64,000 nucleotides of DNA from Candidatus Peregrinibacteria bacterium CG1_02_54_53 (GCA_001872575.1 MNWP01000020.1:8747-72746); one strand, 5' to 3'. Shown: positions 13,641 through 64,000, numbered from the stretch's first letter. Numbers and translations are program-made. The notes: generated from the sequence alone by a model not told the origin.

Positions 13641-13678
13641 GGAAGAAGCGGAAAGAATGAGATTTCCAGTCTATCGCC

Positions 13679-28554: not shown

Positions 28555-28649
28555 ACTCTCCATCATCTCCCCGTCCCCGGGGACGATGCATGGAATACAT
28601 TTAGAAACTAGTTGTTTTTCTTTGAACAACCAGGTCATAAATTTCTTCT

Positions 28650-30112
<1,463 letters not shown>

Positions 30113-30224
30113 ACCAGGGAATTTTCTCTGTTAAAACCATGCTCTGGCCGTGCTAATTGGCCACCATGGTATTCGATTGCCCGGGATAGCACCGATGAAT
30201 CCTATCGGGTTCATGGACCGGAAG

Positions 30225-34389: not shown

Positions 34390-36171
34390 ATGTGGACCCC
34401 TTTTCCCCTTCTGCGGCGCGTGGCATCGGCCCTCAAATCGTTCATTTGGCGACATCCCATTTGGTCTGTCGTACTCGGAATCATCGGTCTGCTTTTTTCG
34501 CTGTTGATGTGGTACATCTTCTCGCCGGTACGTCCCGAGATGATTACGGAAACTGTGCGACGCGGTGATCTTGTGCAAAAAGTGGAGGCCGTGGGAATCA
34601 TTACCTCCGATCGTGATGTGAACCTCAAGTTCCCGATCACGGGCATCGTTGCCAACGTTGCCGCAAAGGAAGGAGACACCGTAACCATGGGCCAGGAACT
34701 CGCCAGACTGCGCAATGAATCGTACTCGGCAGACCTTGCGGCAGCTTCGGCCCAGTACCGCCAGGCACAGGCCGGTTACCAAGAACTTGTTGAAGGCACG
34801 CGGCCCGAAGACATTGTGATTGCCGAGGCAGAAGTCGCCAACAAGCGAGCGGCCCTCGAGGCTGCCCGCGCAGATCTGCTGAGCGCCGAAGAGAAACTGC
34901 GCACTTCAGGAGAGAAACTGCAAGCCATTCGCTCAGGGGCCGACACGAACCTTTCCGGATATATTACGACATCCTCAAGTGCCTGTTCGCAGCAGATTTC
35001 GCTGGCGAAAACTTCTCTGAAAACACTCGACGACATTTTCATCAATTCGGTTATGACTGATATGGCCAAGCAGTACCGCACCACAGCCTACAGTATCTTT
35101 CGATCCAACTGGACCGCGGCACAGACCGCGCATGATGCCTTCTCATGTGCAGGAGGCTTCGGAACGTATTCCGATGCGCTCGCCACGATGGAACGTGCAA
35201 CGGCGGTGATCGCACAGACGACAAATGCACTCCAAGAGGCCTATGGCTTGATTGCCGATTTGCCAATCACAACGGCTTACGATTCTTCGGCTCGCGAAAC
35301 CGACAAGACATCGATCGCCACCGAGAAAGCAAGCACACAGGCGGCGCTGAGCGCCATCAATACCGCCATGAGCAATTTGCGCGATGCTTCTGCAAGTTAT
35401 GACACAAGCATTGCGACTGAAGAGAACACCTATGCGGCTGCGAAGGCCGCCAAACAGTCAGCCGAATCGGCAATTTTCACCTACGAAACCGCCCTGCGCA
35501 CACAGGAGGCGCAACTGGCTCTTAAAAAAGCCGGCCCTCGCGATACGCAGCTGGCCGCTTCGCGAGCCAACATGAACTCGGCTGCCGCAAATATTTCCCG
35601 TGCTCGGGCAAAACTCGAAGACACCATTATTCGCGCACCGGCGGACGGCGTCATCACGAAAATCGACTTCAAGGAAGGGGAATTCACCGGTGACCCGGAT
35701 AACGCCAATCACTCCATCAATATGCTCGGCGCCTCACCCTTCCGTGTCGAGATGTTCCTCTCGGAAGTGGATATCCCCAAGGTCCTGCTCACGCAGAGCG
35801 GCTCTATTGAGCTCGATGCGTTCCCGGGGGTGAACTACGCGCTTAAGGTCACCTCCATCGAGCCTGGACCCACCAAGATTGATGGCGTTTCGAAATACCG
35901 CGTCAGCTTGAACTTCGTTTATCCGCATGATGAATTCAAGATCGGCATGACCGGCGATACAGAAATCATCACAGGAGAGCGCAAAGACGTTCTCCTGGCA
36001 CCGGTGCGATCGGTCATTCAGAAAAACGGTGAAGGGAAAGTCATCCGAGTTCTTGAAAACGGAGAAGTTGTCGACAAACCGGTAACCACCGGCATGGAAT
36101 CCGATACGGATGCAGAAGTTGTCAGTGGGCTCACCGAAGGAGAGACTGTGGTCGTCCTCATCAAACAATAG
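34390..36171 (+). CDS. HlyD/MacA-family periplasmic adaptor with an unusually long Ala-rich coiled-coil
   Basis: N-terminal TM segment, then VEAVGIITSDRDVNLKFPITGIVANVAAKEGDTV (lipoyl-like) and IRAPADGVITKIDFKEGEF (second lipoyl half), then a C-terminal beta-barrel. 593 aa. Confidence 0.8.
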   Translation: MWTPFPLLRRVASALKSFIWRHPIWSVVLGIIGLLFSLLMWYIFSPVRPEMITETVRRGDLVQKVEAVGIITSDRDVNLKFPITGIVANVAAKEGDTVTMGQELARLRNESYSADLAAASAQYRQAQAGYQELVEGTRPEDIVIAEAEVANKRAALEAARADLLSAEEKLRTSGEKLQAIRSGADTNLSGYITTSSSACSQQISLAKTSLKTLDDIFINSVMTDMAKQYRTTAYSIFRSNWTAAQTAHDAFSCAGGFGTYSDALATMERATAVIAQTTNALQEAYGLIADLPITTAYDSSARETDKTSIATEKASTQAALSAINTAMSNLRDASASYDTSIATEENTYAAAKAAKQSAESAIFTYETALRTQEAQLALKKAGPRDTQLAASRANMNSAAANISRARAKLEDTIIRAPADGVITKIDFKEGEFTGDPDNANHSINMLGASPFRVEMFLSEVDIPKVLLTQSGSIELDAFPGVNYALKVTSIEPGPTKIDGVSKYRVSLNFVYPHDEFKIGMTGDTEIITGERKDVLLAPVRSVIQKNGEGKVIRVLENGEVVDKPVTTGMESDTDAEVVSGLTEGETVVVLIKQ

Positions 36172-36173
36172 TC

Positions 36174-36914
36174 ATGCCAAAAAAGGAATCCTCATCATTG
36201 ATTGAAGTAAAAAATCTGTACAAGTCGTACTTCAATGAAATGATTGAAACGCCTGTGCTCTTCGATATCAACTTGAAAATCAATGCCGGGGAATTCGTAG
36301 CGATTATGGGGCCGTCAGGCTCGGGCAAATCCACGCTCATGCACATCTTGGGCTTTCTGGATGTCCCGACGAAAGGCCATTACCACTTCAAGGGGGAATC
36401 GACGGAGGAGAAACAGGAAGATGAGCTGGCGCTGATCCGATCCTCAAGCGTGAGCTTCGTATTCCAGTCGTTCAATCTGCTTCCGCGCACCAGTGTCATC
36501 GACAACGTTTTACTCCCGCTCCTTTACCACAGCGCCACTCGCCCGGCGGATCGTCGTGCCCGTGCCATGAAAGCTATTAAGGCGGTCGGCCTTACGGATC
36601 GTGCCACATACCTCAGCAATCAGCTCTCGGGCGGGCAGCAGCAGCGTGTGGCTATCGCACGCTCCCTCGTTACGGAACCGGAGGTGATCTTCGCCGATGA
36701 ACCGACGGGCAACCTCGACTCGGCATCGGGAAAGCACGTCATGGAAATCCTTCAAAATCTCCATAAAGAGGGACACACGATCATTCTCGTTACTCATGAA
36801 AAAGCCACTGCCGAACATGCCGAACGCATCATCCAGATTATGGATGGTCACATCGTTTCAGACCGCAAAGAATTCTCGCGGCGCATTGCCAGCCAGATAA
36901 AAGAATTCAAATAA
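36174..36914 (+). CDS. MacB/LolD-type ABC transporter ATP-binding protein
   Basis: [37 protein letters not shown] and [11 protein letters not shown]. Confidence 0.93.
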
Positions 36915-36924
36915 CGCCATTTTC

Positions 36925-38163
36925 ATGCAGCTCCGTGATACCGTCACCACCGCGCTCAGGGCAGTGAGAGGCAACGGACCCCGATCGCTCCTCACGATGC
37001 TCGGCATCATCATCGGTGTCGGAGCCGTTGTTCTCATGACGAGTGTAGGCGAGAGTATGCAGAGCGTGATTCTGGGGCAGATCAGCGCACTCGGGCCCAA
37101 GACCATTGCCATGTGGCCGGGCAAGAACGGGCCGGAGCAGGGAGCCGCCACGCTCAATCCCGATTTCGACAGTTTCACTCTCAGCGATGTCGAAGCGCTC
37201 AGGCGGCTGCAGACTATTTCAAACGTGGCCCCCATCATCTTCGTTCAGGGCAAGACGACCTACGGCACAGAGCAGACCGATACGCGTGTTGTGGGTACCA
37301 CGCCCGACTACTTCTTAAACCAAGTCGTCGACGTTGCCGAAGGGCGACTGCATGATGGGCAGGATGAGCTGGAAGGGCGCGCAGTAGCCGTGCTCGGGCC
37401 CGATACGGCAAAAGATCTCTTCTTCAATCAGAGTCCGCTGGGCAAGCGAATTGAGATCGGCAACAAGAAGTACACGGTGATCGGCGTACTGGAATCGGTA
37501 GGGTCGCAGTTTTTTCAGAACATGGATGAACGCATCGTCATTCCCTTCGAGACGGCCCACATTGTTGCACAGCGCTCGTACGTCGACATGATTACGGCGA
37601 TGTCAACGGGCGATACGGCAGATGCCGTTGCCGATATTCAGTTCTTGCTGCGTCGACGTCACAATATCATTCCTCCTGAGACCGGATCCGAAACCGATAA
37701 CGACGATTTTCTCGTGCGCACGGCGGAACAGGCACAGGAAATTTTGGGCACGGTATCGGTTAGTCTTACTGCTTTCATTACGATGATCGCCACGATTTCA
37801 CTGCTTGTTGGGGGCATCGGCATTATGAATATCATGCTTGTCGCCGTAACGGAACGCACTCGTGAGATCGGCCTGCGCAAAGCCCTTGGAGCGCGTCGCA
37901 ATGACATCCTGCTGCAGTTTCTCATCGAAGCCGTAATCCTCACCGTGCTCGGCGGGCTCATCGGCCTGCTGCTGGGAGTAAGCCTGAATGCGATCATTGT
38001 GGGAATTGCCCGAAAGTTTCTCGATCGCTACATCTTCGCCCTCAACCCCATAGCAATGGTCGCCGCGCTAATCATGGCTGCTGGAACCGGTCTCATTTTC
38101 GGTATCTATCCGGCTCGTAAAGCCGCAGAACTTAATCCTATAGAAGCTCTTCGCTACGAATAA
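36925..38163 (+). CDS. MacB-type ABC permease (MacB_PCD plus FtsX domains), subunit 1
   Basis: ...LLTMLGIIIGVGAVVLM...GGIGIMNIMLVAVTERTREIGLRKALGARRNDILLQFLIEA...YPARKAAELNPIEALRYE. Confidence 0.9.
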   Translation: MQLRDTVTTALRAVRGNGPRSLLTMLGIIIGVGAVVLMTSVGESMQSVILGQISALGPKTIAMWPGKNGPEQGAATLNPDFDSFTLSDVEALRRLQTISNVAPIIFVQGKTTYGTEQTDTRVVGTTPDYFLNQVVDVAEGRLHDGQDELEGRAVAVLGPDTAKDLFFNQSPLGKRIEIGNKKYTVIGVLESVGSQFFQNMDERIVIPFETAHIVAQRSYVDMITAMSTGDTADAVADIQFLLRRRHNIIPPETGSETDNDDFLVRTAEQAQEILGTVSVSLTAFITMIATISLLVGGIGIMNIMLVAVTERTREIGLRKALGARRNDILLQFLIEAVILTVLGGLIGLLLGVSLNAIIVGIARKFLDRYIFALNPIAMVAALIMAAGTGLIFGIYPARKAAELNPIEALRYE

Positions 38164-38194
38164 CCCGTCTTCGCTCCGCTTCGCCGCGGTACCT

Positions 38195-39412
38195 ATGCGC
38201 ATACAAGATACTCTCCGGTCGGCACTCGAAGGACTCACCCGCAATATCTCGCGATCGCTGCTCACAACACTTGGCATCATCATTGGCGTGGGTTCTGTGG
38301 TGCTGATGGTTTCGGTTGGTGCAACCTTTCAGAATTTCATCTTAGACCAGGTAAGCGACTTTAGCGGCAACACCTTCGAAATCCATTCCAAAGGACTACA
38401 GGAATTCGGTAAAGAAACGAATACGCTCACCGAGAGCGATGCAGAGGCACTTGCCAAGCTCTCGACAGTCAGGAATGTCGTTCCCGTGATCTTCGTCGCA
38501 CAGAAAGTGAAATTCGGTACAGAAGAAGTAAGCCCCATGATTTTGGGATCAACCAAAGATATCTTCGAAAACTGGTCCATGAAGATTGCCAATGGACGTC
38601 TGCTCGGTGATGGAGACTTGAAGGGGGGCCAGAGTGTTGTGGTATTGGGCGGCAAAACTGCTGAAGATCTCTTTGGGAACTCAGATCCTCTTGGCAATCG
38701 TATCAGTGTCGGGGAACGTAAATTCACTGTCGTCGGTGTTCTTAAGACTCTTGGAGGGGCAATGGGGGCGCAGATGGATACGCCTATCTACATTCCATTT
38801 ACTGTCGCACAGATCCTGACAAGCAAGGGGCGCTATATCGATTATATTTCCCTGCAGGCTGTAGGAGATGTTGATCTCGCGACCGAAGATATTAAGTCGT
38901 TGCTTCGTCAGCGCCACAACATCGATAATCCGAATGATGATCCTGATAAGGATGACTTCATTGCCCGTTCATTCGCACAGGCGACAGAGATCATCGGCAC
39001 GGTCACGCTCTCGATCACCGTCTTTCTCGGCCTTATCGCAGGAATCTCACTTGTGGTCGGCGGCATCGGCATCATGAACATCATGTTGGTTTCGGTATCG
39101 GAACGTACGAAAGAGATCGGCCTGCGAAAGGCAGTGGGCGCACGCCGACACGACATTCTGCTGCAATTCCTCATCGAGGCCGTCGCACTTACGGTGCTTG
39201 GCGGACTCATCGGTATCGCAGGAGGGGGCTTTCTTGGATTCGTCATCACGAAACTTGCGTCGAAATTCCTTGGAGATCTGTCGTTCGCACTCACGATCAG
39301 TTCGGTTCTGCTTGCGCTTGGCATGGCCGTGGGAACCGGGTTGATCTTCGGGCTCTATCCCGCCCGGCGCGCAGCCAGGCTGCACCCCATCGAGGCAATG
39401 CGCTTCGAATAG
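38195..39412 (+). CDS. MacB-type ABC permease (MacB_PCD plus FtsX domains), subunit 2
   Basis: ...LLTTLGIIIGVGSVVLM...GGIGIMNIMLVSVSERTKEIGLRKAVGARRHDILLQFLIEA...YPARRAARLHPIEAMRFE. It is a paralog of the preceding gene. Confidence 0.9.
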   Translation: MRIQDTLRSALEGLTRNISRSLLTTLGIIIGVGSVVLMVSVGATFQNFILDQVSDFSGNTFEIHSKGLQEFGKETNTLTESDAEALAKLSTVRNVVPVIFVAQKVKFGTEEVSPMILGSTKDIFENWSMKIANGRLLGDGDLKGGQSVVVLGGKTAEDLFGNSDPLGNRISVGERKFTVVGVLKTLGGAMGAQMDTPIYIPFTVAQILTSKGRYIDYISLQAVGDVDLATEDIKSLLRQRHNIDNPNDDPDKDDFIARSFAQATEIIGTVTLSITVFLGLIAGISLVVGGIGIMNIMLVSVSERTKEIGLRKAVGARRHDILLQFLIEAVALTVLGGLIGIAGGGFLGFVITKLASKFLGDLSFALTISSVLLALGMAVGTGLIFGLYPARRAARLHPIEAMRFE

Positions 39413-44030: not shown

Positions 44031-46760
44031 TCAGGCATTTTTCCCATGACAGTGTTTATATTTGATAGGAGTGCCATCCGGCTTTCTCGCTCCGCACGGA
44101 CAGGAATCATTGCGACCGACTTTGGCAACCGCCATGGGATGCGCAGAGGGGGTGGCAACAGGCATTCGGGCAATGGGGGAATCTTTGGAGGCGGCTGCAG
44201 CCGCTGAAGCCACTCCGGTCTGCGTGAGTTCCGCGGCAATCTGGTCTTCGTTCGTCTGCAGGTTCTGTAATTCCTCCTGACGCTCTTCCAGCATGACGCG
44301 TGCCGAAAACTGCGCGAAATCGATTTGCACGAGCGTGCGGACGATTGTGGAGTCAATGGTGGCAATGAGCTGCTGAAAACGTCGAAAGCCCTGATCTTTG
44401 TACTCGATGAGAGGATCGCGCTGGGCATACCCGGCAAACGCCACCTGCTCGCGCAGATGCGACATGTCATCAATGTGGTCCATCCAGTGTGTATCGATTG
44501 AGCGCAGAGTGATAATGCGTTCGGCTTGCGCAACAGTGGCAGGTTGCTCTTCCCGGCACTTGGCCTGATAGAAATCCTGAACCAGCTTCACCAGAGCATC
44601 CGCAATTTCATCGGGGGAAGAGAATGACCGCAATTTTTTCTCGGTCGCCACTTCGGCAAGAGCCGGATGAAGAGCGGTAAGGCTTTCGGCGATTTCTTTC
44701 ACGTTCCATTCGCTCGGGTCGATATTCGATGCATGTACTGCTGAAAGCAAGCGCATCTCCGATTTAATAGCGGCGAGAATATCTTTGTGAAGAGGCTGGG
44801 CCTCCACTGCTTCTTCGGGGACTTTATCGGCCTCGGCAAGCCGTTCGAGAATCTTCTGTCGCCGCGCATAGATGATTTGGCGGTGCTTGTTCATGACATC
44901 GTCGTACCGCACCACATGACGACGGATATCGAAGTTATGTCCTTCGACTTTCTTCTGCGCACCCTCGATGGAGCGTGACACCATTCCGTTTTCCAGAGGA
45001 ACGTCATCGGGAACTTTGAGTCGCTCCATGAGGCCCTTCAGGCGATCTCCGCCGAAAAGTCGCATAAGGTCATCCTCCATGGAAACGAAAAATTGACTCT
45101 CGCCATGATCGCCCTGGCGTCCGGATCGGCCGCGCAACTGATTGTCGATACGTCGTGCCTCATGACGCTCGGTTCCGAGGATGCAGAGTCCGCCCGTATC
45201 TGCGACACCCTCACCCAGCTTAATATCTGTTCCACGACCGGCCATGTTCGTCGCAATGGTCACCGATCCCTTCTGCCCTGCATGGGCCACGATCTCCGCC
45301 TCTTTTTCGTGATGCTTGGCATTGAGCACTTGATGTGGAACTTTTTCCTGCTCCAAAAGAGCGCTCATGGTCTCGGATTTCTCGATCGATGTGGTGCCTA
45401 TGAGCACGGGCTGCCCCTTGGCATACTTTTCTTTGGCAATCGCGGCTACCGCTTTGAACTTCGCCTCCACCGTGCGATAGATCGCATCGGCCTTGTCATC
45501 GCGGACCATGGGTTTGTTGGTCGGGATGATGATGACCTTCAGTTTGTAGATCGTCTCGAACTCCTCCTCCTCCGTCTTGGCTGTACCGGTCATGCCGGCG
45601 AGCTTGTCGAAGATGCGGAAGTAATTCTGAAAGGTGATGGTGGCGAGTGTTTTCGATTCGCGCTGCACCTCTACGTTCTCTTTCGCCTCGATTGCCTGGT
45701 GCAACCCGTGACTGTAGCGACGCCCCTCCATGAGACGACCGGTGAATTCGTCAACAATGATGATTTCGCCATCCTTCACCACGTAATCAACATCCCGTTG
45801 GTACATGGCGTGTGCGCGAAGCGCCTGCTCGATGTGGTGCACTTCGGCAAAGCCCTTCTCGGTGTAGATGTTGTCGAGCCCGAGCAATTGCTCCATCTTC
45901 TTTACACCATCTTCGGTAAGGACAGCGGTCTTCTGCTTCTCATCTTTATTGAAATCCACATTCTCAACGAGTTGTCCGACCAACAGCGCATATTGACGGT
46001 ATTTGTCGGTGGATTCGCCGGCGGGCTGACTGATGATGAGTGGTGTACGCGCCTCATCGATAAGGATCGAGTCCACTTCGTCCACGATGGCGTAGTGGAG
46101 TCCACGTTGTACCTGGCGACTGAGAGACGTCACCATGTTGTCGCGCAGGTAATCGAACCCGAATTCATTGTTCGTACCGTAGGTCACGTCGCAGGCGTAG
46201 GCCTCTTTGCGCTCATCATTCGATTTCTCGTGAACGATGATACCCACGGTAAGGCCCAGAGCCTCGTACAACATGCCCATCCATGTGGCGTCACGCTTGG
46301 CGAGGTAATCGTTCACCGTCACCACATGTACGCCTTTACCCTCGAGAGCATTGAGATAGACCGGCATGGTACAGACGAGAGTTTTTCCTTCTCCGGTTTT
46401 CATTTCGGAGATATTGCCCTGATGCAGCACGATGCCACCCAGCACCTGCACATCAAAAGGCACCATGTCCCACATGAACGTCTGCTTTCCAAGTGACGTC
46501 GTCTTGCCCGATTCCTTCAGAAGTTCACAGGCGCGAATCACGGCGGCAAACGCCTCGGGAAGGAGCGCATCGAGCGTTTCGCCCTTGACAATGCGGTCCC
46601 GGAATTCCTGCGTTTTGCCCGGAAGTGACTCAAGTGTGAGAGATTTGATTGTTTCGGTCTCGCACTGCTTTTTTACGAGCGCAACGATCGGCCAGAGCTT
46701 TTTCAGCTCTTTCTCGTTGGGATCGCCGAGAAACTTGTTGAGAAAATCGATGACACCCAT
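44031..46760 (-). CDS. secA: Preprotein translocase ATPase SecA
   Basis: 909 aa. MKTGEGKTLV, VTVNDYLAKRD, TGMTGTAKTEEEEF, ATNMAGRGTDIKLG and the C-terminal zinc finger CPCG...KYKHCHG. Confidence 0.97.
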   Translation of the reverse strand: MGVIDFLNKFLGDPNEKELKKLWPIVALVKKQCETETIKSLTLESLPGKTQEFRDRIVKGETLDALLPEAFAAVIRACELLKESGKTTSLGKQTFMWDMVPFDVQVLGGIVLHQGNISEMKTGEGKTLVCTMPVYLNALEGKGVHVVTVNDYLAKRDATWMGMLYEALGLTVGIIVHEKSNDERKEAYACDVTYGTNNEFGFDYLRDNMVTSLSRQVQRGLHYAIVDEVDSILIDEARTPLIISQPAGESTDKYRQYALLVGQLVENVDFNKDEKQKTAVLTEDGVKKMEQLLGLDNIYTEKGFAEVHHIEQALRAHAMYQRDVDYVVKDGEIIIVDEFTGRLMEGRRYSHGLHQAIEAKENVEVQRESKTLATITFQNYFRIFDKLAGMTGTAKTEEEEFETIYKLKVIIIPTNKPMVRDDKADAIYRTVEAKFKAVAAIAKEKYAKGQPVLIGTTSIEKSETMSALLEQEKVPHQVLNAKHHEKEAEIVAHAGQKGSVTIATNMAGRGTDIKLGEGVADTGGLCILGTERHEARRIDNQLRGRSGRQGDHGESQFFVSMEDDLMRLFGGDRLKGLMERLKVPDDVPLENGMVSRSIEGAQKKVEGHNFDIRRHVVRYDDVMNKHRQIIYARRQKILERLAEADKVPEEAVEAQPLHKDILAAIKSEMRLLSAVHASNIDPSEWNVKEIAESLTALHPALAEVATEKKLRSFSSPDEIADALVKLVQDFYQAKCREEQPATVAQAERIITLRSIDTHWMDHIDDMSHLREQVAFAGYAQRDPLIEYKDQGFRRFQQLIATIDSTIVRTLVQIDFAQFSARVMLEERQEELQNLQTNEDQIAAELTQTGVASAAAAASKDSPIARMPVATPSAHPMAVAKVGRNDSCPCGARKPDGTPIKYKHCHGKNA

Positions 46761-54957: not shown

Positions 54958-55812
54958 CTAGAAAGGCAGATCTTCCACTTTCACCTCCGAGGCATATTGA
55001 ATCTCGGGGATGTCGGCCGATGCCGGGGCGTCTGCTGCAGGCGGCGTTGCGCGGGGCGCTGCCCGTCGTTGAGCACTGGTCTCAACGGCTTCGAGAGCGG
55101 AGGCATTGCGCACACCGAGTAGAGAGCATTGATCGGCAATGATCTCGGTTGTCGTACGTTTTTGGCCTTGCTGCGTCTCCCAGCTCCTTGTCTGCACACG
55201 TCCCGAAACAAAGACGCGGCTGCCCTTATGTACCACCTTACCCACTTCTTCCGCCAATGCGCCCCAAATGACAACATTATGAAATTCTGCACGCTTCTTG
55301 GCCTCACCGGTCGATCGCTCTTTCCAACGATCGTTCGTTGCCACACCCAGTGTAAGCACTTGCTTGCCACCGGATGTCGTTCGAATCTCGGGATCGCGGG
55401 TGACATTACCGACGACATCGGCACGATTCACGGCGCTGAGCGTAAGTTTGGCTGCCTCTGGCATGGGAACCTGGCCATCCTTCGGATCAAGGAGAATCAT
55501 ATCGAGTGCGACGACTTTGGTTTTGCTGCGCTTTTCGTGGGTAGTCTGATCTTCCCATGAATCCGTCTGCAACCGCCCGCCGATGAAGATTTGTGAGCCG
55601 GGCCGCACGTATTGGCCGGCAAAATCGGCCATAGAGCCCCAAAGTGTTACGGTCTGAAAGGCTTTGCCCTGTAAGGTTTCTCCTTGCTCGGATTGAAATG
55701 CATACGGAACAACGAGATTTAAATCCACTACGCTCGTGCCACCCGGGGTTTGGCGGATCTCTACTGGTTGAGTTTGGTAACCGATCATGTGAACGCGATT
55801 AAGGGAAAACAT
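54958..55812 (-). CDS. ssb: Single-stranded DNA-binding protein with two tandem OB folds
   Basis: OB fold 1: LNRVHMIGYQTQPVEIRQTPGGTSVV...VTLWGSMADFAGQYVRPGSQIFIGGRLQTDSWED. OB fold 2: NRADVVGNVTRDPEIRTTSGGKQVLTLGVATNDRW...FHNVVIWGALAEEVGKVVHKGSRVFVSGRVQTRSWE. A Pro/Ala-rich tail ends in the acidic tip ...EVKVEDLPF. The start is placed at 55812. Confidence 0.88.
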   Translation of the reverse strand: MFSLNRVHMIGYQTQPVEIRQTPGGTSVVDLNLVVPYAFQSEQGETLQGKAFQTVTLWGSMADFAGQYVRPGSQIFIGGRLQTDSWEDQTTHEKRSKTKVVALDMILLDPKDGQVPMPEAAKLTLSAVNRADVVGNVTRDPEIRTTSGGKQVLTLGVATNDRWKERSTGEAKKRAEFHNVVIWGALAEEVGKVVHKGSRVFVSGRVQTRSWETQQGQKRTTTEIIADQCSLLGVRNASALEAVETSAQRRAAPRATPPAADAPASADIPEIQYASEVKVEDLPF

Positions 55813-56005
55813 GTCAGGAAGAGGAATGGAAATAGAGGAGGCCACAAAGGCGCGGAAGGGCACCGTACACCGGCAAAAAATTCGTGCAAACGAATAGCCT
55901 TGAGCACCCAACGCAATATGCCATGGTTATAGGTGCCGCCTATGTTGCCGTGCAACGTCTTTCTGTGGCGCAAAAGCAGAAAAAAACGGTACGATACCCC
56001 CCACG

Positions 56006-59000
56006 ATGAAAGCACTCGTGAAATCCGGCGTCCTGATCGTGGCGGCCCTGCTGATGGCAGTCGTTCTTCGCGCACTTCCTGCCAAGGCACTGCAGCTCGA
56101 TGAACCGGCAGACTTTAAGGCCGTGCAAGAAAATGTGAGCAAGGTTCGGGGAGACCTCGAGGCCGCCCAGTGTGGCGGTTGGGATTTCTACGATACCGTC
56201 GACAATAAGATCCCCTATGTGAGCGGCGCCCCCGGTCGTAGAAGCACATTTCTCGGCCCGGACGGCAAGCTGTTGTCTGAAGTGGCGGCGGCCGGTCTCG
56301 GCAATCGCGAGGAATCAACGGGCGCCCTCGAAGACGGCTTCGTTTTTCCTGACTCCGGTCGCACGAGCGGCTGGTCCACCGTGTGCAATGTCAATGAATG
56401 TGAAAACAGTTATCCGTATATTCGCGAATGTCCGGATGATCCCCCTTGTCGTAACCCCGAAGATTGCCGGCAAATGTGTCATGATCTGAACGCGTGGGTG
56501 CGACGCCACCAAGACTGTACTGCAGAGTGGACGGAGTGGGATGCCTTTGGCAATCCCTTTCGCGTATATGATACTTTTGCCGATACGAGCCCCTGCTATA
56601 ACACCGATAACGGTGACTGGTGCCACCCGGGAGAAGATTGGGTGAGTGTTGATGCTCAATTGTGGGACATGTGGGGCAACATGGCAGAGCTGGATATCTG
56701 GTGCGATATCGATGAATTGCTGTACTGCTGCTCCAATGCAAAAGTGGTTGATCGCGACAGAGATCCCGATGGCAATTGCATTGTCTGCCACGGAGACGGC
56801 CTCGAGGACCGCAACAATCCGGGGTTTGATTTCAACGGCGAGCGACCTCAGGATCTTGAATTCACCGGATGTCGTGATGGCAAATATGCTCCAAATGATC
56901 GGAAGTACGTATCGATCTATCGACGCCACACAGTGACGTACACGCGCGATCCCGTGTGGATTATCCCGCGCGATGACACGTCACGTTTCGACGTACCGGT
57001 TGATTGCTACTGTCGCTACGAAGAATTCGACCCCAAAATCCGTCGCACCGACCGGCCGGACTACCGTTGCGTCATTAATTTGGAAGATCCCGACAAGCGT
57101 TTCAATGCCATGAAAGAAACCCAGCGCGGCAAAGGGGAATACGGTCAGAATTCCAATCTTCCCGATCCGGCCTACCAACATGCGGCGGCTCGTGACACAC
57201 GCAAAGACCTGTGGGTGAATGATTTCAGTGATACGTTTTCGCTCTTAAACAGCGATAAATTCAAGGAATCACCAAAAGATAATCTGTTTCCGTTGATGCA
57301 GCTCGATAACACCGACATCATGCCGACTGCGCAGCTGGATGTGCAACGCCCTTTCTCGAGTGGCAGCCTGATTCGATCCACCGATGACACCGTTCACACC
57401 GATGACCCGGGTCGTCGCACGATCACCGAGTGGTGGCAGGAACAAGAAACGCAAGCGCATAAGCTCTTCAGCTCTCCACTGCTCCGGCTCGTACTCCCGA
57501 CACCCGCTTCAATCGGGCTGGATCTTTCTGATCCGTTCCTCACTCCGCGGGGCAGCAGCTCCAGTAACGGCAAGAAGATCAATCAACAGATTATCGATAT
57601 TCAGATCAACGCTCTGCCCGAAGATCTGCTGTCAGAAGTCAGTGCCTACCTCGAAAATGGCCTCCTCCTCCACGTGCGTGAGGAACCCGTGCCTTTGGTT
57701 GTTCCGATGGCCTCGTCTGTTGAGCTGCGTGCGCTGGCTCAGGGCTGGAAACGCTGGGGTGAAGAACACCTCGATGGAAAGTCGCGTGCCGAAGAAGCGG
57801 CACGGAAATTGGAAGATTATGCCGACCGCATTGATCGTGTTCGGGCATTGCGCGGTGAATTATCGCAGTACATAGGGCGCCTGCTCACGTATCAAGGAAC
57901 AATGATGCGTGCCATCGGTGAGTGGCTCACAGCCAACATGCAAACATGGGAACGGTATTCCGCCGTGCATCATCAGGGTCTTGACCTCAAGCCGCTGTGG
58001 CAGGAAATCCAACAGAAGTACCGTGTCTTCCACGATCAGACGAATATGCCATGGTGCCGCAACGATCGTTTCACGACACCGATTTATTCTTTTTTGGATA
58101 ACTGGATGCCAGGCCCGCAAGAGCCGCGCGATTTGATGCTCAACATCGATAGTCAGCCCGCAAACGACATCACTCCCTACAGTCTGCCTCGTCTGTCGAT
58201 CGAAATGCTGCCCGATCTCGTCTACGACTTCACGGTCCTGCGCGTTTCGACGGGAACGGTGATCTTGCCCGTCATCACGCCCATTCAAATTCGGCTTCAA
58301 CAGTCGCTATTTGATCCTCCCACCGCCAATGATGACTTCGCCAGTGTTTCGGCTCGGCTCGATAAGATCATCGAATCACCGGATCTTCCGCCGGTGCCGA
58401 CAATCTATGAAGAAGTGCTTGGCAGACTGTTCCCGACCGAGGTTCAGCATCTCTCTTCGCCATCAATGGTGGAAACGGCTATCGCGGACGTGCCGCCTGA
58501 AGTCGAGCAAACCATGAGACGTATGCTGCAGATGATCACCGGTATGGATGAGACATACCGCAAGTTCTGGGAGAGCATTACGGATTTCCCCGAAAGGAAC
58601 TTCTATCGCATGTGGTCGTGTGAGCATCTCAACGAAATGCCGTGCGTACATGTAGAGATGGATCTGCTCGAACGTTTCACCCGCATCGGAGCACGACCTG
58701 CGGTGCAAATTCGGGAAGATTTCTCATCATATGGCCCTTTCCGAACGGATGTGATTCGTGATTCCAATGTTGCAGGAGTACTGCGCAGCATGGACTTAGA
58801 CCCTCCGACAGCCGTGCCTCCGTGTCCGCGCGAAGATTGGGCCTGCCAGATCTACAATGTGGAGAAGACATACGCTCGAGAAGGATGGCGCGTCGAAGGA
58901 ATACAAGAGGGAGAGGGAAAGCAGGATTTGGCGAATTTGCGCAACAGACTTTGGAAGCAGACCATCCCCATCGGAAGCAGCAGTTCTTTCCCGTACATCG

Positions 59001-59095
59001 TTACTCCGGATGAAATGCTGCCATCATTCAACGTTCCCTCACCCATTATCCTGCCCACGACCCGATTTGGTCAGAGTAGTTCCTCTTACCGATGA
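56006..59095 (+). CDS. Large secreted Cys-rich protein of unknown family (operon gene 1 of 5)
   Basis: 1029 aa with signal-like N-terminus MKALVKSGVLIVAALLMAVVLRALPAKA. I count about 24 Cys, mostly in the first ~400 residues (CNVNECENSYPYIRECPDDPPCRNPEDCRQMC...). No domain recognised. Confidence 0.7.
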   Translation: MKALVKSGVLIVAALLMAVVLRALPAKALQLDEPADFKAVQENVSKVRGDLEAAQCGGWDFYDTVDNKIPYVSGAPGRRSTFLGPDGKLLSEVAAAGLGNREESTGALEDGFVFPDSGRTSGWSTVCNVNECENSYPYIRECPDDPPCRNPEDCRQMCHDLNAWVRRHQDCTAEWTEWDAFGNPFRVYDTFADTSPCYNTDNGDWCHPGEDWVSVDAQLWDMWGNMAELDIWCDIDELLYCCSNAKVVDRDRDPDGNCIVCHGDGLEDRNNPGFDFNGERPQDLEFTGCRDGKYAPNDRKYVSIYRRHTVTYTRDPVWIIPRDDTSRFDVPVDCYCRYEEFDPKIRRTDRPDYRCVINLEDPDKRFNAMKETQRGKGEYGQNSNLPDPAYQHAAARDTRKDLWVNDFSDTFSLLNSDKFKESPKDNLFPLMQLDNTDIMPTAQLDVQRPFSSGSLIRSTDDTVHTDDPGRRTITEWWQEQETQAHKLFSSPLLRLVLPTPASIGLDLSDPFLTPRGSSSSNGKKINQQIIDIQINALPEDLLSEVSAYLENGLLLHVREEPVPLVVPMASSVELRALAQGWKRWGEEHLDGKSRAEEAARKLEDYADRIDRVRALRGELSQYIGRLLTYQGTMMRAIGEWLTANMQTWERYSAVHHQGLDLKPLWQEIQQKYRVFHDQTNMPWCRNDRFTTPIYSFLDNWMPGPQEPRDLMLNIDSQPANDITPYSLPRLSIEMLPDLVYDFTVLRVSTGTVILPVITPIQIRLQQSLFDPPTANDDFASVSARLDKIIESPDLPPVPTIYEEVLGRLFPTEVQHLSSPSMVETAIADVPPEVEQTMRRMLQMITGMDETYRKFWESITDFPERNFYRMWSCEHLNEMPCVHVEMDLLERFTRIGARPAVQIREDFSSYGPFRTDVIRDSNVAGVLRSMDLDPPTAVPPCPREDWACQIYNVEKTYAREGWRVEGIQEGEGKQDLANLRNRLWKQTIPIGSSSSFPYIVTPDEMLPSFNVPSPIILPTTRFGQSSSSYR

Positions 59096-59907
59096 AGCGC
59101 CGCCTCTCCATTCTCTGGCTCACCGCTCTCCTGCTGACGATCGTGCCGCTGCAAGGGCAGGCGCAGGATATAGGCACATGCCAGACTCTCATGACGCAAC
59201 AGCTCTCACGGGAGCAACGTCTATACCGCAGCGTTCTCTTCGGCCACAAAAAAGCGAAAGATGCCGCGCTGAACGAAGTGTATTTCGACGACGAGGGAAT
59301 CCCCTGGATCAAAGAGAAAGAGAATGTGTGGCGCTCGGTTTCGCCGGGTAAAGAAGATGAGGAACGCAGTAATGACGAAGTGGATGGCAACGATGAATTG
59401 GAACCTCGTAAAGGCATTTTCGAAACGCGCAAAGTGATGACATCGGATTTGGTGCCCTATCTCACACAAGCCTATCGCTCACTCAAATGCCGTTCGACGA
59501 TCATCTGCAAGGTCGTCGAGAATTCTTTGGAGCTGGAGAGCACAAGTCCGCAAGAATTGACCGTTGTGGTGCCGGGATGCATTGAAGACAAAAGACCTTC
59601 GATTCTCGGTTGCCATCTTGCGGCCGCCGAAGGAAGCAAAGTAGAGCAGGGGGACTTGCTGACCTACTGCAGGTTGGTACGGGATGATCTGGTATCACGC
59701 GAGAAGGATTTGCTTAAGCAGGCTACGGAATACGACGCGGCTTATCGTTCGCTCTTGCAACTTGCAGGGCAGATGGATGCCTTTTTGCAGGAATTCCGCT
59801 GGCCCCTCATCAATTCACTGCGCAAGGCGGCACAACTCGTCGGATCGCTCTACCGCATCCCCTGCTTTATCGGAAGCTGCGATGAAAGCCCTCCATCAAA
59901 CCAGTAA
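59092..59907 (+). CDS. Secreted protein of unknown family (operon gene 2 of 5)
   Basis: 271 aa with signal peptide MKRRLSILWLTALLLTIVPLQGQAQD. ATGA overlap with the gene 1 stop. No domain recognised. Confidence 0.65.
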   Translation: MKRRLSILWLTALLLTIVPLQGQAQDIGTCQTLMTQQLSREQRLYRSVLFGHKKAKDAALNEVYFDDEGIPWIKEKENVWRSVSPGKEDEERSNDEVDGNDELEPRKGIFETRKVMTSDLVPYLTQAYRSLKCRSTIICKVVENSLELESTSPQELTVVVPGCIEDKRPSILGCHLAAAEGSKVEQGDLLTYCRLVRDDLVSREKDLLKQATEYDAAYRSLLQLAGQMDAFLQEFRWPLINSLRKAAQLVGSLYRIPCFIGSCDESPPSNQ

Positions 59908-60702
59908 ATGACACGCCATTCCCTCTTCATCGGTCTGATAAGCATCCTGCTTGTGGCGGGCCTCGGTGCCGCAGTTTATGTAAGCAAAAACCCCGAGAGA
60001 TTTACTGCCACGAATGTGAATTTGCTCATCAAACAAGAAGAGCAGAATTCCATTCTTACGCCCTGCTCACGCTTTGCAGAGGGCTACGCGTATGCACAAC
60101 TGCCCTTCAGGGATGGAAACTTTTCGGCGTGGCCGGCCGAATATCACCGCATTGTAGGCACTGTCGTCGACGAGCATCTGCAATCATTCATGCGTCCTCC
60201 CAACTGCAGTGCACTGACGGGGGATGGGGTGTTGCCCGGAGGTGCACAACTCAGCGCACTGGCAAAAATGCTCCCCAGTTGGAAGAGCGCATCCGTCAGC
60301 CAGTGGGAAGCCGGTTCCGTCCTCCTTGAGTTTTTGCGGGCCTACGAGTGCGCCTTGGAAGAGAGGCTCTATTTTTTGCATCCTGATGCGCTTCTCGAAT
60401 TGGAGATGAAAATGCAAGAGCGCGAAGATGATTCTGATATTTATCTCTCGCTGCTCAATACAGAAGTTTCAGAAGAAGATCAAACGATCACAACGGAATT
60501 GGCCACGGCCCGTCCGTCACTTAACCGAACACTTTCTGTTCTCGCCGGCCTCAGCCGTCTGCTGCCGCTCCACTCAGAACTCCAGTGCATTGAGCGCTCT
60601 TCTCTCGACATCCGCAATGCACTTGCTCTGGCAGCCGAGACCAGTGCCTGTCTGCCCCGTATTTGGAACGCAAAAGATCCGCTTCGCGACCTGCCACAGT
60701 GA
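59908..60702 (+). CDS. N-terminally membrane-anchored protein of unknown family (operon gene 3 of 5)
   Basis: 264 aa. MTRHSLFIGLISILLVAGLGAAVYV. The ATG immediately follows the gene 2 TAA. Confidence 0.65.
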   Translation: MTRHSLFIGLISILLVAGLGAAVYVSKNPERFTATNVNLLIKQEEQNSILTPCSRFAEGYAYAQLPFRDGNFSAWPAEYHRIVGTVVDEHLQSFMRPPNCSALTGDGVLPGGAQLSALAKMLPSWKSASVSQWEAGSVLLEFLRAYECALEERLYFLHPDALLELEMKMQEREDDSDIYLSLLNTEVSEEDQTITTELATARPSLNRTLSVLAGLSRLLPLHSELQCIERSSLDIRNALALAAETSACLPRIWNAKDPLRDLPQ

Positions 60703-63194
60703 GATATGCCTCCGCCATTTTCGGCATTGTCGGTTCACTGTTCTGCATAACGCACGTCCATGCGCAACAGGGGCTTGGCGGCCTGCAGCTCTATGAAAGA
60801 ATGCATAATCTGACCACTCAGGGGATAACGCTGGCAAATACGAATGATGGGGCATTGGTCAAAGGGGATAATGGACTAGCGGAATACATTACGAGCATAT
60901 TTCTGCAGGAAAACTCCAATACATTGGAAAAAACGTCTGCCGAAATGCGCCCCATTGTGCAGGCAGCAATTGAAGGACAGCTGGATGAATTCTGCAAGTT
61001 ATACAACAACACGTTTGATGGATGCCCACAGGTGTACCAAATGATTCGGGATCTGGCACTCGATGCGATGGATACAGGCGAACTTTTAGTCGACCTGAAT
61101 AATATTGTCGTAGGCTACGAAACAGGCGTAAGTGGAAAAATGGGAGAAATCTTCGATGTCACGGAGCGCACGCTTACGATTCGCAATCTCTGGCGCAGCC
61201 AGGATGATGTTCTGCTCACGCCTGAGGTTTTCCCCCTTATACGAGCGGTTCCCCGACCCGACAGTGTCGCAGATGGAATGTTCGACGAACTCGGCAAAGA
61301 AATAAAACAAGGCGGTGTCTGGCGTTATCACTACGGCCTTGCCCAATTTGACACAATAGCCTGTTCCGACTTCGACGAGAGCCACGATGACAACACTGAA
61401 CTCTACAGAGCTATCCACATGCGCTTTTGTAAATTAGAAGACAAGTTGCGCGCCATCAGGGACGCTCTTCCTAGCTCTGCACTCGATTTTACTCCCCCCT
61501 TACAGCGTGGAGAAATTGCTATCTTTCCCCTACGCAGACTTGACGATCCCCCACACGTCATCGTCTGGATGATGGCAGAGAATGTTGACGGCACGGTTAA
61601 ACGGGATGTGGGACTTGGCTGGGACCTAATGCTCGCTACCGGCCCGCTTGTTATTGCCGGCTATAACCCTCCATGCGATAGCGAAAAGCTTAATAGCGCC
61701 TACTGCTCCGTTGTAGAACGTTTTGCAGTCCGCCCTGGCGGGCGATATGAAGATCCTCCAGAGGAACCTAGTGAAGAAGCCGGAATATGCCATCTTCCTT
61801 TTGCGCGCGACGGTTACATGTGTCGTCCCATGCGCCATGATCGTTGCAATGCAGAAATAGACGAGAAAGATCCGCGCGCGATCGTCCTCACCGAGTGCAA
61901 GCCGACACAGGCCAAGCAGCCCGTTGCACTCACGGAATCCGGCCCCGATATCTGTCGTACGGGCTGGTGGCGAATCCCCACCAATAACGAGGAATTGGCA
62001 AAAGACACATCTGAAGAAAACCCCGATCTCCGACCGGGGGCCTGCAGTAATTGTGCGGTAGACATCGTCTGCTCTGAACACTGTGGCGGGATTGATGGAT
62101 TTGACTCTCAGACCATGCCAAAGGATGAAAACGGCGTCATTAAAATCTGTCTTTCACGAAGAAATCCTCCACCTTTGATGGCCTCGGGGCTCATCCACGA
62201 GCTCACGCACGCGCAACAACTTTGCCCGTTACAACCAGAGGATGCACCGACCGATGCAGAGACCTGTTGCGCTCTCGAAGCAGAAGCGTATCGGGCCAGT
62301 TGTCGTATCCTTGCCACTAACGGGCTGCTCGACAGCGCAGGTATCTCTCTTGAGGAGTGTATTGGAGTAGGAGCAAATATGAGTTGCACCCATCTCGGCG
62401 AAGCTACTTGTTCCTCTTTGGACACAGAGAGTGTTTGGGACAAGTTGATGCTTGCCGCACGGAAAGATACCTCTTCGTACCCATCCTGCGATGAGTTGGT
62501 GAATGATATGATCAATAAAGAACCGCTCGCCGTGGCGATGAAAGAAGGAATGAACGGCGCGTGCTCCCCCGGCTGCCCGACGAAGTACGAGAACACCATC
62601 GGCAATAATCTCTGCTACATCGGACAGTGTGTGGAGCAATCCATCGAACAATCGCGCGTCATCCCCGGCCGAATGGGATTCGTCGTCGAGGACGAGGCAT
62701 TCCCGTGGGATTCCTGTGCGGTGGAAAACACAGAAGCAGGCGGCCTCATCGCCCTGCCAGCCATTTCGCCTCCGCTCATTCCCGCCTACAACCCACGTTT
62801 ATTGATTGAATCACTCGATCGTGCGCTGTGTCAGATCAATGGCCTTCCTGCCGCCACACCACCCATTCTCTGCCAGTTCAACTACGAGCGCAGACTGAAT
62901 ATCCCCACGGAAAGTTACGTCACAACGGCGTTCAGTTTTGCAGGGCAGATTGAAGAAAATTTGGAACCGGCTGTCTTGCTCGAGCGCATGACCCAGAGTA
63001 TTGCGACGCGTATTGGCACCTCACTTCTGGCGCGATATCTTGAATGGTCGGCGGGTGCACTCTCCGACACGCTGCGCGCAGGCAATCAGCTGCTTGGCGC
63101 CATGGCAAAGACCGAATTCCCTCGCGAAACATGCCCGCGCAATGCGGCAGAAATACCTGATTTCTGCAATGCATCTCCGTACGTTCCCGAATGA
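60699..63194 (+). CDS. Large secreted Cys-rich protein with an HExxH motif (operon gene 4 of 5)
   Basis: About 831 aa from the GTG at 60699, which forms a GTGA overlap with the gene 3 stop. The track's ATG alternative is 60663. Signal-like RYASAIFGIVGSLFCITHVHAQQ. GLIHELTHAQQLCP, with HELTH encoded at 62196-62210. Confidence 0.7.
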   Translation: MRYASAIFGIVGSLFCITHVHAQQGLGGLQLYERMHNLTTQGITLANTNDGALVKGDNGLAEYITSIFLQENSNTLEKTSAEMRPIVQAAIEGQLDEFCKLYNNTFDGCPQVYQMIRDLALDAMDTGELLVDLNNIVVGYETGVSGKMGEIFDVTERTLTIRNLWRSQDDVLLTPEVFPLIRAVPRPDSVADGMFDELGKEIKQGGVWRYHYGLAQFDTIACSDFDESHDDNTELYRAIHMRFCKLEDKLRAIRDALPSSALDFTPPLQRGEIAIFPLRRLDDPPHVIVWMMAENVDGTVKRDVGLGWDLMLATGPLVIAGYNPPCDSEKLNSAYCSVVERFAVRPGGRYEDPPEEPSEEAGICHLPFARDGYMCRPMRHDRCNAEIDEKDPRAIVLTECKPTQAKQPVALTESGPDICRTGWWRIPTNNEELAKDTSEENPDLRPGACSNCAVDIVCSEHCGGIDGFDSQTMPKDENGVIKICLSRRNPPPLMASGLIHELTHAQQLCPLQPEDAPTDAETCCALEAEAYRASCRILATNGLLDSAGISLEECIGVGANMSCTHLGEATCSSLDTESVWDKLMLAARKDTSSYPSCDELVNDMINKEPLAVAMKEGMNGACSPGCPTKYENTIGNNLCYIGQCVEQSIEQSRVIPGRMGFVVEDEAFPWDSCAVENTEAGGLIALPAISPPLIPAYNPRLLIESLDRALCQINGLPAATPPILCQFNYERRLNIPTESYVTTAFSFAGQIEENLEPAVLLERMTQSIATRIGTSLLARYLEWSAGALSDTLRAGNQLLGAMAKTEFPRETCPRNAAEIPDFCNASPYVPE

Positions 63195-64000
63195 GAATAG
63201 CCCCTCTGTTGCTCACTGGCATATTTACTCTCTCCGTTGTCTCTCCGGTATCCGCGGCAGGTGATCAGTACGCGGATATTCCTCCGGTTTCTCCGTACAT
63301 GGAACGTGTGGTTCGTCGCGCGAGAGAAGGATTGAACAACGGCAGCGGAGGCGGCTCGACGGCAGACGAACTCTTGAAACTCTTCTGGCTTGATCAGGTT
63401 ACAGGGGCGATTCTCCTCTTGATCGACACGGACTTACGTATTGTCGAACAGGAGCGCGATCTGCGCGAGAATACGGCATGCTTACGGGTTGATACGCTCA
63501 TACTCGAGGGCTGGATGGAGCGGGCACGCATCAGAAAGAATGATGCGATTGAACAAGGGCGTCTCAGTGAAGCCGCCCGTCTCATTTCAATGCAGCGGTA
63601 CTTGAATAACCGCTACAAAGCCCTTCTTGTGGGGGCGAGGGACCCCACCTATGTCGATGAAGAAGAAGGTTCGCTCTATGTCTTCGATGCTCCTCCTTAC
63701 TGGTGCTGCCCCGGAAAAGACGAAGAAGCCCAGGAGAGAACTGCCGAGTGTAAACAGATTGGCGATGGCCCGGAGTACTCTGAATGTATCAACGCGCAAG
63801 GGCTCGCATTTAAAAGGCAGTATGCCTGCGTGAATGCCGGCTGCACTGCGGGGGGAGGGGGGGGAGAAGATGAAGACGAACCCTGTCCATTCAGCACGGA
63901 TTACCTGCCTCCAACGGGCGCAGGATACGGGTGTGATCTCTCGGTTCTCGGCAGTCGAAGTGCACCGGAGGGAATCCAAAAAGAAACCGCGGCCCTGCAA
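63191..64000 (+). CDS. Secreted Cys-containing protein of unknown family (operon gene 5, 3' end beyond window)
   Basis: Not in the track because it has no stop in the window. My translation from the ATG at 63191 (ATGA overlap): MRIAPLLLTGIFTLSVVSPVSAAGDQYADIPPVSPYMERVVRRAREGLNNGSGGGS...PYWCCPGKDEEAQERTAECKQIG...CVNAGCTAGGGGGEDEDEPCPF..., open to position 64000. Confidence 0.6.
   Translation, partial: MRIAPLLLTGIFTLSVVSPVSAAGDQYADIPPVSPYMERVVRRAREGLNNGSGGGSTADELLKLFWLDQVTGAILLLIDTDLRIVEQERDLRENTACLRVDTLILEGWMERARIRKNDAIEQGRLSEAARLISMQRYLNNRYKALLVGARDPTYVDEEEGSLYVFDAPPYWCCPGKDEEAQERTAECKQIGDGPEYSECINAQGLAFKRQYACVNAGCTAGGGGGEDEDEPCPFSTDYLPPTGAGYGCDLSVLGSRSAPEGIQKETAALQ

Follow-up and report, generated by a model that had tools for sequence, protein, structure and literature searches.

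Introduction

Peribacteria, a lineage of Peregrinibacteria in the candidate phyla radiation (CPR), have small genomes (~1.25 Mb), have not been cultivated and presumably live as symbionts. Conserved hypothetical operons restricted to one lineage are a common sight in CPR genomes. In Mycoplasma, co-transcribed genes give rise to the P1-P40/P90 'Nap', a large membrane-tethered extracellular hetero-complex with a variable distal head; its proteins have transmembrane helices of their own as anchors and are not disulfide-rich. Within the Peribacteria themselves, the large cysteine (Cys)-rich proteins of Candidatus Peribacter riflensis (Ca. P. riflensis) are predicted to be extracellular and were proposed to have a cell-surface or attachment role (Anantharaman et al. 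2016, PMC4736985). The same work reports that Peribacteria invest heavily in exported Cys-rich proteins and encode a disulfide-forming protein (PMC4736985). Here we describe another locus of this clade, an operon of five genes, g1 to g5, in a 64,000-nt stretch of DNA (the window) from the Candidatus Peribacteria metagenome-assembled genome (MAG) Candidatus Peregrinibacteria bacterium CG1_02_54_53 (GCA_001872575.1 MNWP01000020.1:8747-72746). A sequence-only reading had picked out the locus as a co-translated unit of secreted, Cys-rich proteins apparently building a cell-surface assembly, and no published description of it turned up in the literature. We find that the operon is conserved, in invariant order, in all Peribacteria in which it could be checked, and propose that its products may form a membrane-tethered surface complex.

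A translationally coupled operon confined to Peribacteria

All five open reading frames (ORFs) lie on the plus strand and have the lengths given by the sequence-only reading, the fifth being open to the window edge (Table 1; positions are counted from the window's first letter). Direct reading of the junctions reproduced exactly the codons and coordinates claimed before: ATGA at 59092-59095, TAAATG at 59905-59910, GTGA at 60699-60702 and ATGA at 63191-63194. An upstream TTG at 60663 offers an alternative start for g4, which would then encode 843 aa. Together with these junctions, the tight intergenic spacing over ~70 species (medians of 1, 14, -1 and -1 nt) supports the earlier claim of co-translation, and we conclude that g1 to g5 form a single translationally coupled unit. 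Within 20 nt upstream of the five starts, that of the first gene included, no Shine-Dalgarno (SD)-like motif was detected, and initiation may be SD-independent or proceed by termination-reinitiation. Judging from its position between ssb and g1, the 142-bp divergent spacer presumably acts as the promoter region; a sigma-70 consensus scan found no site in this spacer and fewer promoter-like sites than in shuffles. GC content is even along the window, which holds no paralogues of the five genes.

The complete g5 is present on a 108-kb contig recovered by exact protein match (L001, GCA_002322595.1 DCPB01000018.1), where it spans 13284-14843 and encodes 519 aa, reaching 750 nt beyond the window. 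On this contig, dnaE lies 62 nt downstream of g5 and is followed by Sua5, nrdR and aspS; a terminator scan found none between g5 and dnaE. Because dnaE comes after g5, the operon comprises exactly five genes (~8.75 kb). The predicted continuation past the window edge is thus correct as far as g5 is concerned, with no further member beyond it. Upstream of the operon are a GT28 (murG-like) gene, a peptidyl-prolyl isomerase (PPIase), gltX, two small ORFs, murB and the divergent ssb, and the L001 contig confirmed the divergent ssb and the core-gene flanks that had been described.

Named homologues of g1, ranging from 85% down to 29% identity to the window protein, are each a 'hypothetical protein' of Candidatus Peregrinibacteria, Peribacteria or Peribacteraceae; homologues of g4 are unnamed, including Ca. 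Peribacter riflensis PeribacterA2_1005. An exhaustive hmmsearch of 1.84 billion representative proteins with a g1 hidden Markov model (HMM) returned 247 matches at E ≤ 1e-3, of which 199 were below 1e-30, and the family is sharply bounded, without a remote tail. Using one genome per GTDB species, we found a g1 relative in 94 genomes, nearly all labelled Peribacteria or Peregrinibacteria, and kept 80 loci. When these were searched by tblastn with the five proteins and three neighbours, g1 matched in 80 loci, g2 in 73 (directly after g1), g3 in 71, g4 in 70 and g5 in 66; ssb matched upstream in 72, on the opposite strand in all but one, and dnaE downstream in 59. The g1-g2-g3-g4-g5 order on a single strand is invariant in every locus, with missing members nearly all at contig ends, and the block murB–ssb(−)–g1..g5–dnaE keeps its order in all ~66–73 species-level genomes with sufficient contig. 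The layout is matched in Ca. Peribacter riflensis, with products of 1029/278/262/820/520 aa and junctions that overlap; its closed genome has the operon as RIFOXYC2_FULL_PER-ii_58_32_963-967, all annotated as 'hypothetical'.

Some contigs bear odd labels, namely Kiritimatiellales (L044, JAIPIN010000018.1), Gracilibacteria (L074, CAVOCY010000019.1) and 'bacterium', and their ssb and dnaE are 68-79% identical to those of the window. Because of this identity in the flanking genes, these contigs are probably Peribacteria that were mis-binned or mislabelled; L044 and L074 carry the whole ssb-g1..g5-dnaE block, with ORFs that stay open under code 11. No relatives were found on 2.9 million viral contigs (IMG/VR), which, along with the fixed chromosomal locus, bears out the earlier statement that the unit is not associated with mobile elements. 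According to these data, the operon is single-copy, vertically inherited and confined to Peribacteria (Peregrinibacteria, CPR).

In comparison with the closest species, the ratio of nonsynonymous to synonymous substitution rates (dN/dS) was 0.045-0.073 for g1, g2, g3 and g5, as compared to 0.09 for murB and 0.05 for ssb, all of these being rough values with dS near saturation. The possibility raised by the sequence-only reading, that the gene set might be conserved in no relative, is contradicted by these ratios and by the 66-73 other species that carry it in unchanged order. The proteins themselves diverge fast: mean Kimura distances are 1.15-1.44 for the five families and 0.36-0.43 for ssb and dnaE, a three- to fourfold difference, and the operon proteins are 25-45% identical where the neighbours keep 60-80%. 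Fast divergence is usual for extracytoplasmic proteins. Each family retains dozens of invariant or near-invariant columns, and the five genes appear to be under strong purifying selection. With housekeeping neighbours regressed out, distances covary among the five families with a partial r of 0.40-0.63, and with those of ssb and murB at 0.07-0.34 and 0.24-0.30, respectively.

The products carry predicted export signals and conserved cysteines

Each of the five window proteins begins with a short, mostly basic n-region followed by a hydrophobic core. The 15-residue hydropathy maxima, 2.0-2.8, fall within the first 35 residues, with no transmembrane-like segment thereafter, and plausible signal-peptidase I sites are present in g1 (…LPAKA↓LQ, predicted signal peptide aa 1-28), g2 (…LQGQA↓QD), g4 (…HVHA↓QQ) and g5 (…PVSA↓AG). 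The N-terminal segments quoted in the sequence-only reading are correct, and signal-like N-termini recur in nearly all orthologues. Across the five orthologue sets (353 sequences), essentially no internal or C-terminal transmembrane, LPxTG or prepilin signals were found beyond the N-terminus: the class III prepilin motif G↓F-T-L-I-E occurred in 0/353, LPxT[GAS] for sortase anchoring in 1/353 and a C-terminal transmembrane-like segment in 2/353, in agreement with the proposed lack of a pilin or sortase signal. A 'KRR' in window g2 was considered as a sign of twin-arginine (Tat) export and rejected, as it is not conserved in the orthologues. SecA is encoded in the window, ~10 kb upstream of the operon.

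The sequence-only reading had counted about 24 Cys in g1, and there are exactly 24 (2.33%), with the motifs it quoted at residues 127-158, 240-246 and 257-265. The remaining products contain 8 (g2, 2.95%), 5 (g3, 1.89%), 34 (g4, 4.09%) and 14 (g5, 2.70%). Cysteine is the most conserved residue type in the five families, and 16, 8, 5, 22 and 8 Cys columns of g1 to g5 are kept in at least 85% of orthologues. The designation 'Cys-rich' holds relative to the neighbours ssb, dnaE and murB (0.33-1.05%) and is moderate by the standards of the clade, because the Peribacteria proteome mean is already 1.67% and the published Cys-rich proteins mostly reach 5-11% (PMC4736985, Table S4); the operon products are only moderately Cys-enriched. 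Given the Sec-type signals and the invariant Cys, the products are predicted to be disulfide-bonded extracytoplasmic proteins, much as had been suggested.

Predicted anatomy of g1, g2, g3 and g5

AlphaFold2 (AF2) models were made for g1 (32 sequences) and g4 (23 close sequences). The g1 model, with a mean predicted local distance difference test (pLDDT) of 70.6 and a predicted template modelling score (pTM) of 0.60, divides into a head, a linker and a base (Table 1). The head varies in sequence and in length (standard deviation (sd) 54-59 aa), with insertions of up to ~240 aa, and aa 461-700 of the base are almost constant in length (sd 9 aa). Two conserved segments, aa 371-460 and 501-540, could not be folded by AF2 as a monomer. 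In Foldseek searches of the model against PDB and BFVD, nothing scored below E 0.1, and template modelling (TM) scores were < 0.1 for long alignments. The glycoprotein G of rhabdoviruses, a class III fusion protein, recurred in both databases at E 0.1-2; this match, like those to arrestin and jelly-roll folds, was taken as noise (TM < 0.1, root-mean-square deviation > 20 Å). Fused domains that might act as a 'Rosetta stone' were sought in the 1,300-1,800-aa g1 variants, and none was informative, bar a collagen-like repeat in one homologue (P0150; E 3.8e-5, below Pfam's cutoff).

The 8 conserved Cys of g2 include a C-terminal P-C-F-x3-C motif. In g3, the window protein has an N-terminal hydrophobic segment of ~20 residues and no Cys before residue 53, hence no lipobox. 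A canonical lipobox, L-[AST]-[GA]-C (…LLAGC, …LLSGC), precedes the conserved domain in 18/72 g3 orthologues; in the remaining ones, including that of the window, the N-terminus forms an extended hydrophobic segment. Just 1-3 loose lipobox matches came from the other four families. The g3 family appears to alternate between a lipid anchor and a signal-anchor, and g3 is predicted to be a membrane tether. Because its invariant Cys (53, 100, 148, 227 and 248) are five, an odd number, one of them may be free for an intermolecular bond. For g5, the 8 conserved Cys refer to the full protein; one g5 orthologue carries a DUF4215 domain insertion (E 4.6e-7). Paralogy among the five families was rejected, an all-against-all hhalign comparison matching signal peptides only, at probabilities of at most 1.3%.

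g4 combines a putative zincin-like module with a highly conserved segment

The g4 model was poor (pLDDT 55.6 overall), with aa 445-615 mostly at 80-87. This region overlaps a segment around the motif HELTH, which the sequence-only reading had noted as a lone HExxH. The motif is indeed there; it is not isolated and belongs to what looks like a divergent zincin-like module. HExxH is found at the aligned position in 50/67 g4 orthologues and is degenerate in 17/67. A glutamate 23 residues past it (Glu527, E527, in CCxxExEAY) is present in 50/50 HExxH-positive and 8/17 HExxH-negative orthologues, a co-conservation with a Fisher p = 6e-7 that is not corrected for phylogeny. When the module segment from 62 orthologues was scanned alone against Pfam, the recurrent sub-threshold matches were led by HExxH metallopeptidase families: M76/Atp23 in 12/62 members (top score 23.4 bits, cutoff 25.2), DUF6782 in 8/62 (top score 20.4 bits, cutoff 27), M91 in 7/62, eCIS_core/DUF4157 in 4/62, and PhageMetallopep, YgjP-like and Tox-MPTase5 in 1-2/62 each. 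Full-length window g4 matched DUF6782 at 17.7 bits (E 0.0022). The module did not reach the gathering threshold of any zincin family, a PDB sequence-profile search with it gave nothing below E 0.3, and whole-chain Foldseek against PDB gave no match below E 0.7, with the M61 aminopeptidase at E 1.7. We therefore describe g4 aa 441-620 as a putative divergent zincin-like module, without formal family membership. In two loci (L039:13891-15786 and L062:14617-16512), g4 is only 632 aa long: it has lost the entire zincin-like segment, and the remainder of g4 is retained, as is the operon. Because the module is degenerate in 17/67 orthologues and deleted in two, proteolysis cannot be what maintains the operon.

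The best-conserved and most length-invariant part of g4 is the segment that follows, aa 621-735. It measures 113-121 aa in all orthologues (sd 1), shows 51% mean identity and contains the motif YENTIGNNLCYIGQC. Its conservation is 0.55-0.80, yet its pLDDT in the AF2 monomer is 25-42. Going by the models, this segment and g1 aa 371-460 and 501-540 are candidate inter-subunit interfaces.

Table 1. Coordinates of the operon, its predicted parts and neighbouring features in the window.
Feature	Position (nt)	Strand	Residues (aa)	Description
g1	56006-59095	+	1029	ORF
g2	59092-59907	+	271	ORF
g3	59908-60702	+	264	ORF
g4	60699-63194	+	831	from GTG, start overlapping the g3 stop
g5	63191-64000	+		first 270 of 519 codons, open to window edge
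g1 head	56171-57133	+	56-376	Cys-knotted, β-rich; AF2 pLDDT mostly 80-94 at aa ~60-375
g1 linker		+	377-460	conserved; aa 377-454 left unmodelled by AF2
g1 base	57386-59092	+	461-1029	α/β; helix of ~70 residues at aa 592-660
g4 putative zincin-like module	62019-62558	+	441-620	HELTH at aa 500-504 (nt 62196-62210); putative third ligand Glu527
g4 core segment	62559-62903	+	621-735	best-conserved, most length-invariant; …YENTIGNNLCYIGQCVEQSIE…CQINGLP…
20-nt stretches scanned for SD motifs	55986-56005, 59072-59091, 59888-59907, 60679-60698, 63171-63190	+		no motif
ssb-g1 divergent intergenic region	55864-56005	.		142 bp; presumed promoter region, from gene positions
ssb	54958-55863	-	301	
SecA	44031-46760	-		
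HlyD-like protein and two permeases	34390-39412	+		
16S rRNA gene	28649-30113	+		complete

Searches against known families and systems

Searches of Pfam and NCBIfam with the window proteins gave nothing significant, and no recurrent Pfam family emerged from 32 g1, 66 g2, 66 g3 and 54 g5 orthologues. PHROGs and PADLOC had no matches for the operon proteins, and PDB sequence profiles of all five families found nothing below E 0.3. Together with the Foldseek searches against PDB and BFVD, these results bear out the view that the proteins belong to no recognisable family.

A candidate membrane-tethered surface complex and its alternatives

Our preferred reading, on which we remain evenly divided, is that the five products form a membrane-tethered, Sec-exported, disulfide-locked surface complex of Peribacteria. 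In this model, which is built from sequence features, the five proteins (~2,900 residues) would assemble in fixed proportions at the external side of the cytoplasmic membrane. The g3 protein would anchor the complex, through a lipid in a quarter of species and otherwise, as in the window's g3, through an N-terminal signal-anchor. The conserved parts of g1 and g4 would form the core, with g1 contributing a conserved base and a variable, Cys-knotted and β-rich head that projects outward. To the same core, g4 would bring its invariant segment, as well as a zincin-like module that is probably catalytic in most species and inessential to assembly. The complex might contact or process an external partner, be it the surface of a host cell or the surface layer of the bacterium itself. 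If we were to guess from this anatomy, it would be a core cell-surface apparatus of symbiont-like bacteria, neither metabolic nor cytoplasmic.

A more specific version, which we regard as tentative and rather doubtful, is a five-subunit extracellular nanomachine with novel folds for host contact or nutrient acquisition (possibly membrane contact), in which the g1 head would recognise the partner. If this were true, the nanomachine would underlie the symbiotic lifestyle of Peribacteria as a lineage-defining apparatus. Taking up ~0.7% of the genome and kept in every examined species, the operon is a leading candidate for the envelope or contact machinery that defines the lineage. It adds five new protein families, among which the g1 head is confidently modelled and has no PDB or BFVD counterpart. 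It also provides targets: peptides to be sought in groundwater metaproteomes, antigens for labelling and sorting cells, and subunits for expression and structure determination.

Several points weigh against the proposed complex. Support for a multi-protein assembly is indirect and comes from translational coupling, the g3 tether, the conserved segments that could not be modelled and the weak covariation. Rate covariation is weak evidence in itself, as fast-evolving proteins share saturation effects, and the partial r of the five families with dnaE (0.40-0.55) is nearly as high as that among the five. The whole neighbourhood is syntenic in the clade, and fixed gene order alone is no proof of functional linkage. 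A housekeeping role in the envelope would account for the universal conservation and the low dN/dS no less well than host attachment. The zincin motif has been lost in 25% of species, which excludes protease activity as the conserved function. Model quality is poor for g4, the models cover g1 and g4, and the proteins may be very divergent members of known folds. Hydrophobic N-termini were counted in 65-72 orthologues per family with a choice of start codons that favoured them; independently called starts in L001 and in a further locus (L085) agree.

These points bring in an alternative that we consider possible, if on the unlikely side: an envelope-biogenesis machine, in which a tethered complex would fold, process or anchor Cys-rich surface proteins or the S-layer, and g4 would combine the parts of protease and chaperone, much as Atp23 (M76) does. 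The universal presence in single copy, the housekeeping-like dN/dS and the location in a core region with murB and the murG-like gene are all in line with such a role. M76 is also the most frequent sub-threshold match of the g4 module (12/62), although its best score stays below the cutoff (23.4 against 25.2 bits). The assembly role of Atp23 is independent of catalysis, and the loss of HExxH in 17/67 orthologues with the rest of g4 conserved would fit a catalysis-independent function. The heavy investment of Peribacteria in exported Cys-rich proteins (PMC4736985) could supply the clients of such a machine, but no link to any client protein was found, and a head as variable and prone to insertions as that of g1 would be more usual on an exposed surface that binds ligands.

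That the genes encode five co-expressed but independent secreted proteins, such as effectors, toxins or scavenging enzymes, seems improbable to us. A membrane anchor is missing from four of the five, the families are mutually unrelated (hhalign probabilities of at most 1.3%), and a zincin-like module is seen in secreted effector peptidases such as M91. However, the order and tight coupling are invariant over order- or class-level divergence, with no gain, loss or duplication of a single member; one member is always membrane-tethered, conserved segments do not fold alone, and effector sets are usually strain-variable, which the operon is not. We give very little credence to an extracellular device for DNA uptake or processing linked to the flanking ssb and dnaE. 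Their position is conserved in all informative loci and no terminator was found by the scan between g5 and dnaE, but ssb is divergently transcribed, and murB, gltX and the genes past dnaE are equally syntenic, so that the neighbouring position is a mark of overall genome stability; the proteins show no features of a nuclease, ComEA/ComEC or a pilin. The chance that the locus is mobile-element, prophage or defence cargo, or a run of non-functional, fast-evolving ORFs, appears negligible. Orphan status and fast divergence (25-45% identity against 60-80% in the neighbours) might have suggested it, whereas the fixed locus in every species without integrase or repeats, the uniform GC, the searches of PHROGs, PADLOC and 2.9 million viral contigs, dN/dS of ~0.05 and dozens of invariant residues effectively refute it.

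Neighbouring features

Other features of the neighbourhood are recorded here for completeness. The product of the divergent ssb is an SSB of 301 aa in which the OB fold occurs twice in tandem; its two halves are 35% identical (E = 1e-19), and the long form (~285-301 aa) also occurs in other Peribacteria loci. Two-OB SSBs are known in Deinococcus-Thermus, of which the long SSB of Peribacteria is reminiscent. The 16S rRNA gene stands alone, with no 23S or 5S match in the window, and the rRNA genes therefore appear unlinked; ARAGORN found no tRNA gene in the 64 kb. The window also encodes an HlyD-like membrane-fusion protein, with two genes for MacB/FtsX-type permeases after it. On the L001 contig, nrdR and aspS flank a gene with the 23S_rRNA_IVP domain (PF05635, 19978-20340), which is located ~5.1 kb beyond g5 and is absent from the equivalent position in Ca. 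P. riflensis.

Comparison with known systems

The zincins M76/Atp23, DUF6782, M91 and eCIS_core share with g4 the HExxH motif and a Glu ~23 residues further on, and Atp23 is Cys-rich, as is the g4 module. Unlike minimal zincins, the module sits in an exported protein of 831 aa that is best conserved elsewhere; its motif is degenerate in 17/67 orthologues, it is deleted in 2, and it has no PDB match by sequence or fold. The likeness to the Mycoplasma 'Nap' is an analogy only, in that a small-genome, host-dependent bacterium would carry a tethered complex with a variable head; no sequence or fold similarity was detected. Type IV pili and type II secretion systems (T2SS), T4SS, T7SS, sortase-anchored adhesins and S-layers are likewise extracytoplasmic, multi-gene and operonic, whereas the operon has no ATPase, secretin, prepilin signal, LPxTG, SLH or WXG100. 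Judged by these defining features, no known kind of system seems to fit, and the operon would be new by exclusion.

The Cys-rich set of Anantharaman et al. 2016 (PMC4736985, Table S4) belongs to the same clade and resembles the operon products in signal peptides, elevated Cys and hypothetical annotation. Its members are mostly 5-11% Cys, have a mean length of ~1,650 aa (typically >1000 aa), vary between strains and show weak pappalysin or Myxococcus-repeat similarity. In contrast, the operon products contain 1.9-4.1% Cys, range from 264 to 1029 aa, lack repeats, are not homologous to the published proteins and occur in invariant order; moreover, the riflensis genes 963-967 are absent from Table S4. 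The operon is thus not the published Peribacteria Cys-rich cluster. Already published is that Peribacteria have exported Cys-rich proteins, and what the present locus adds is the operon itself, its five families, their universal synteny and their anatomy.

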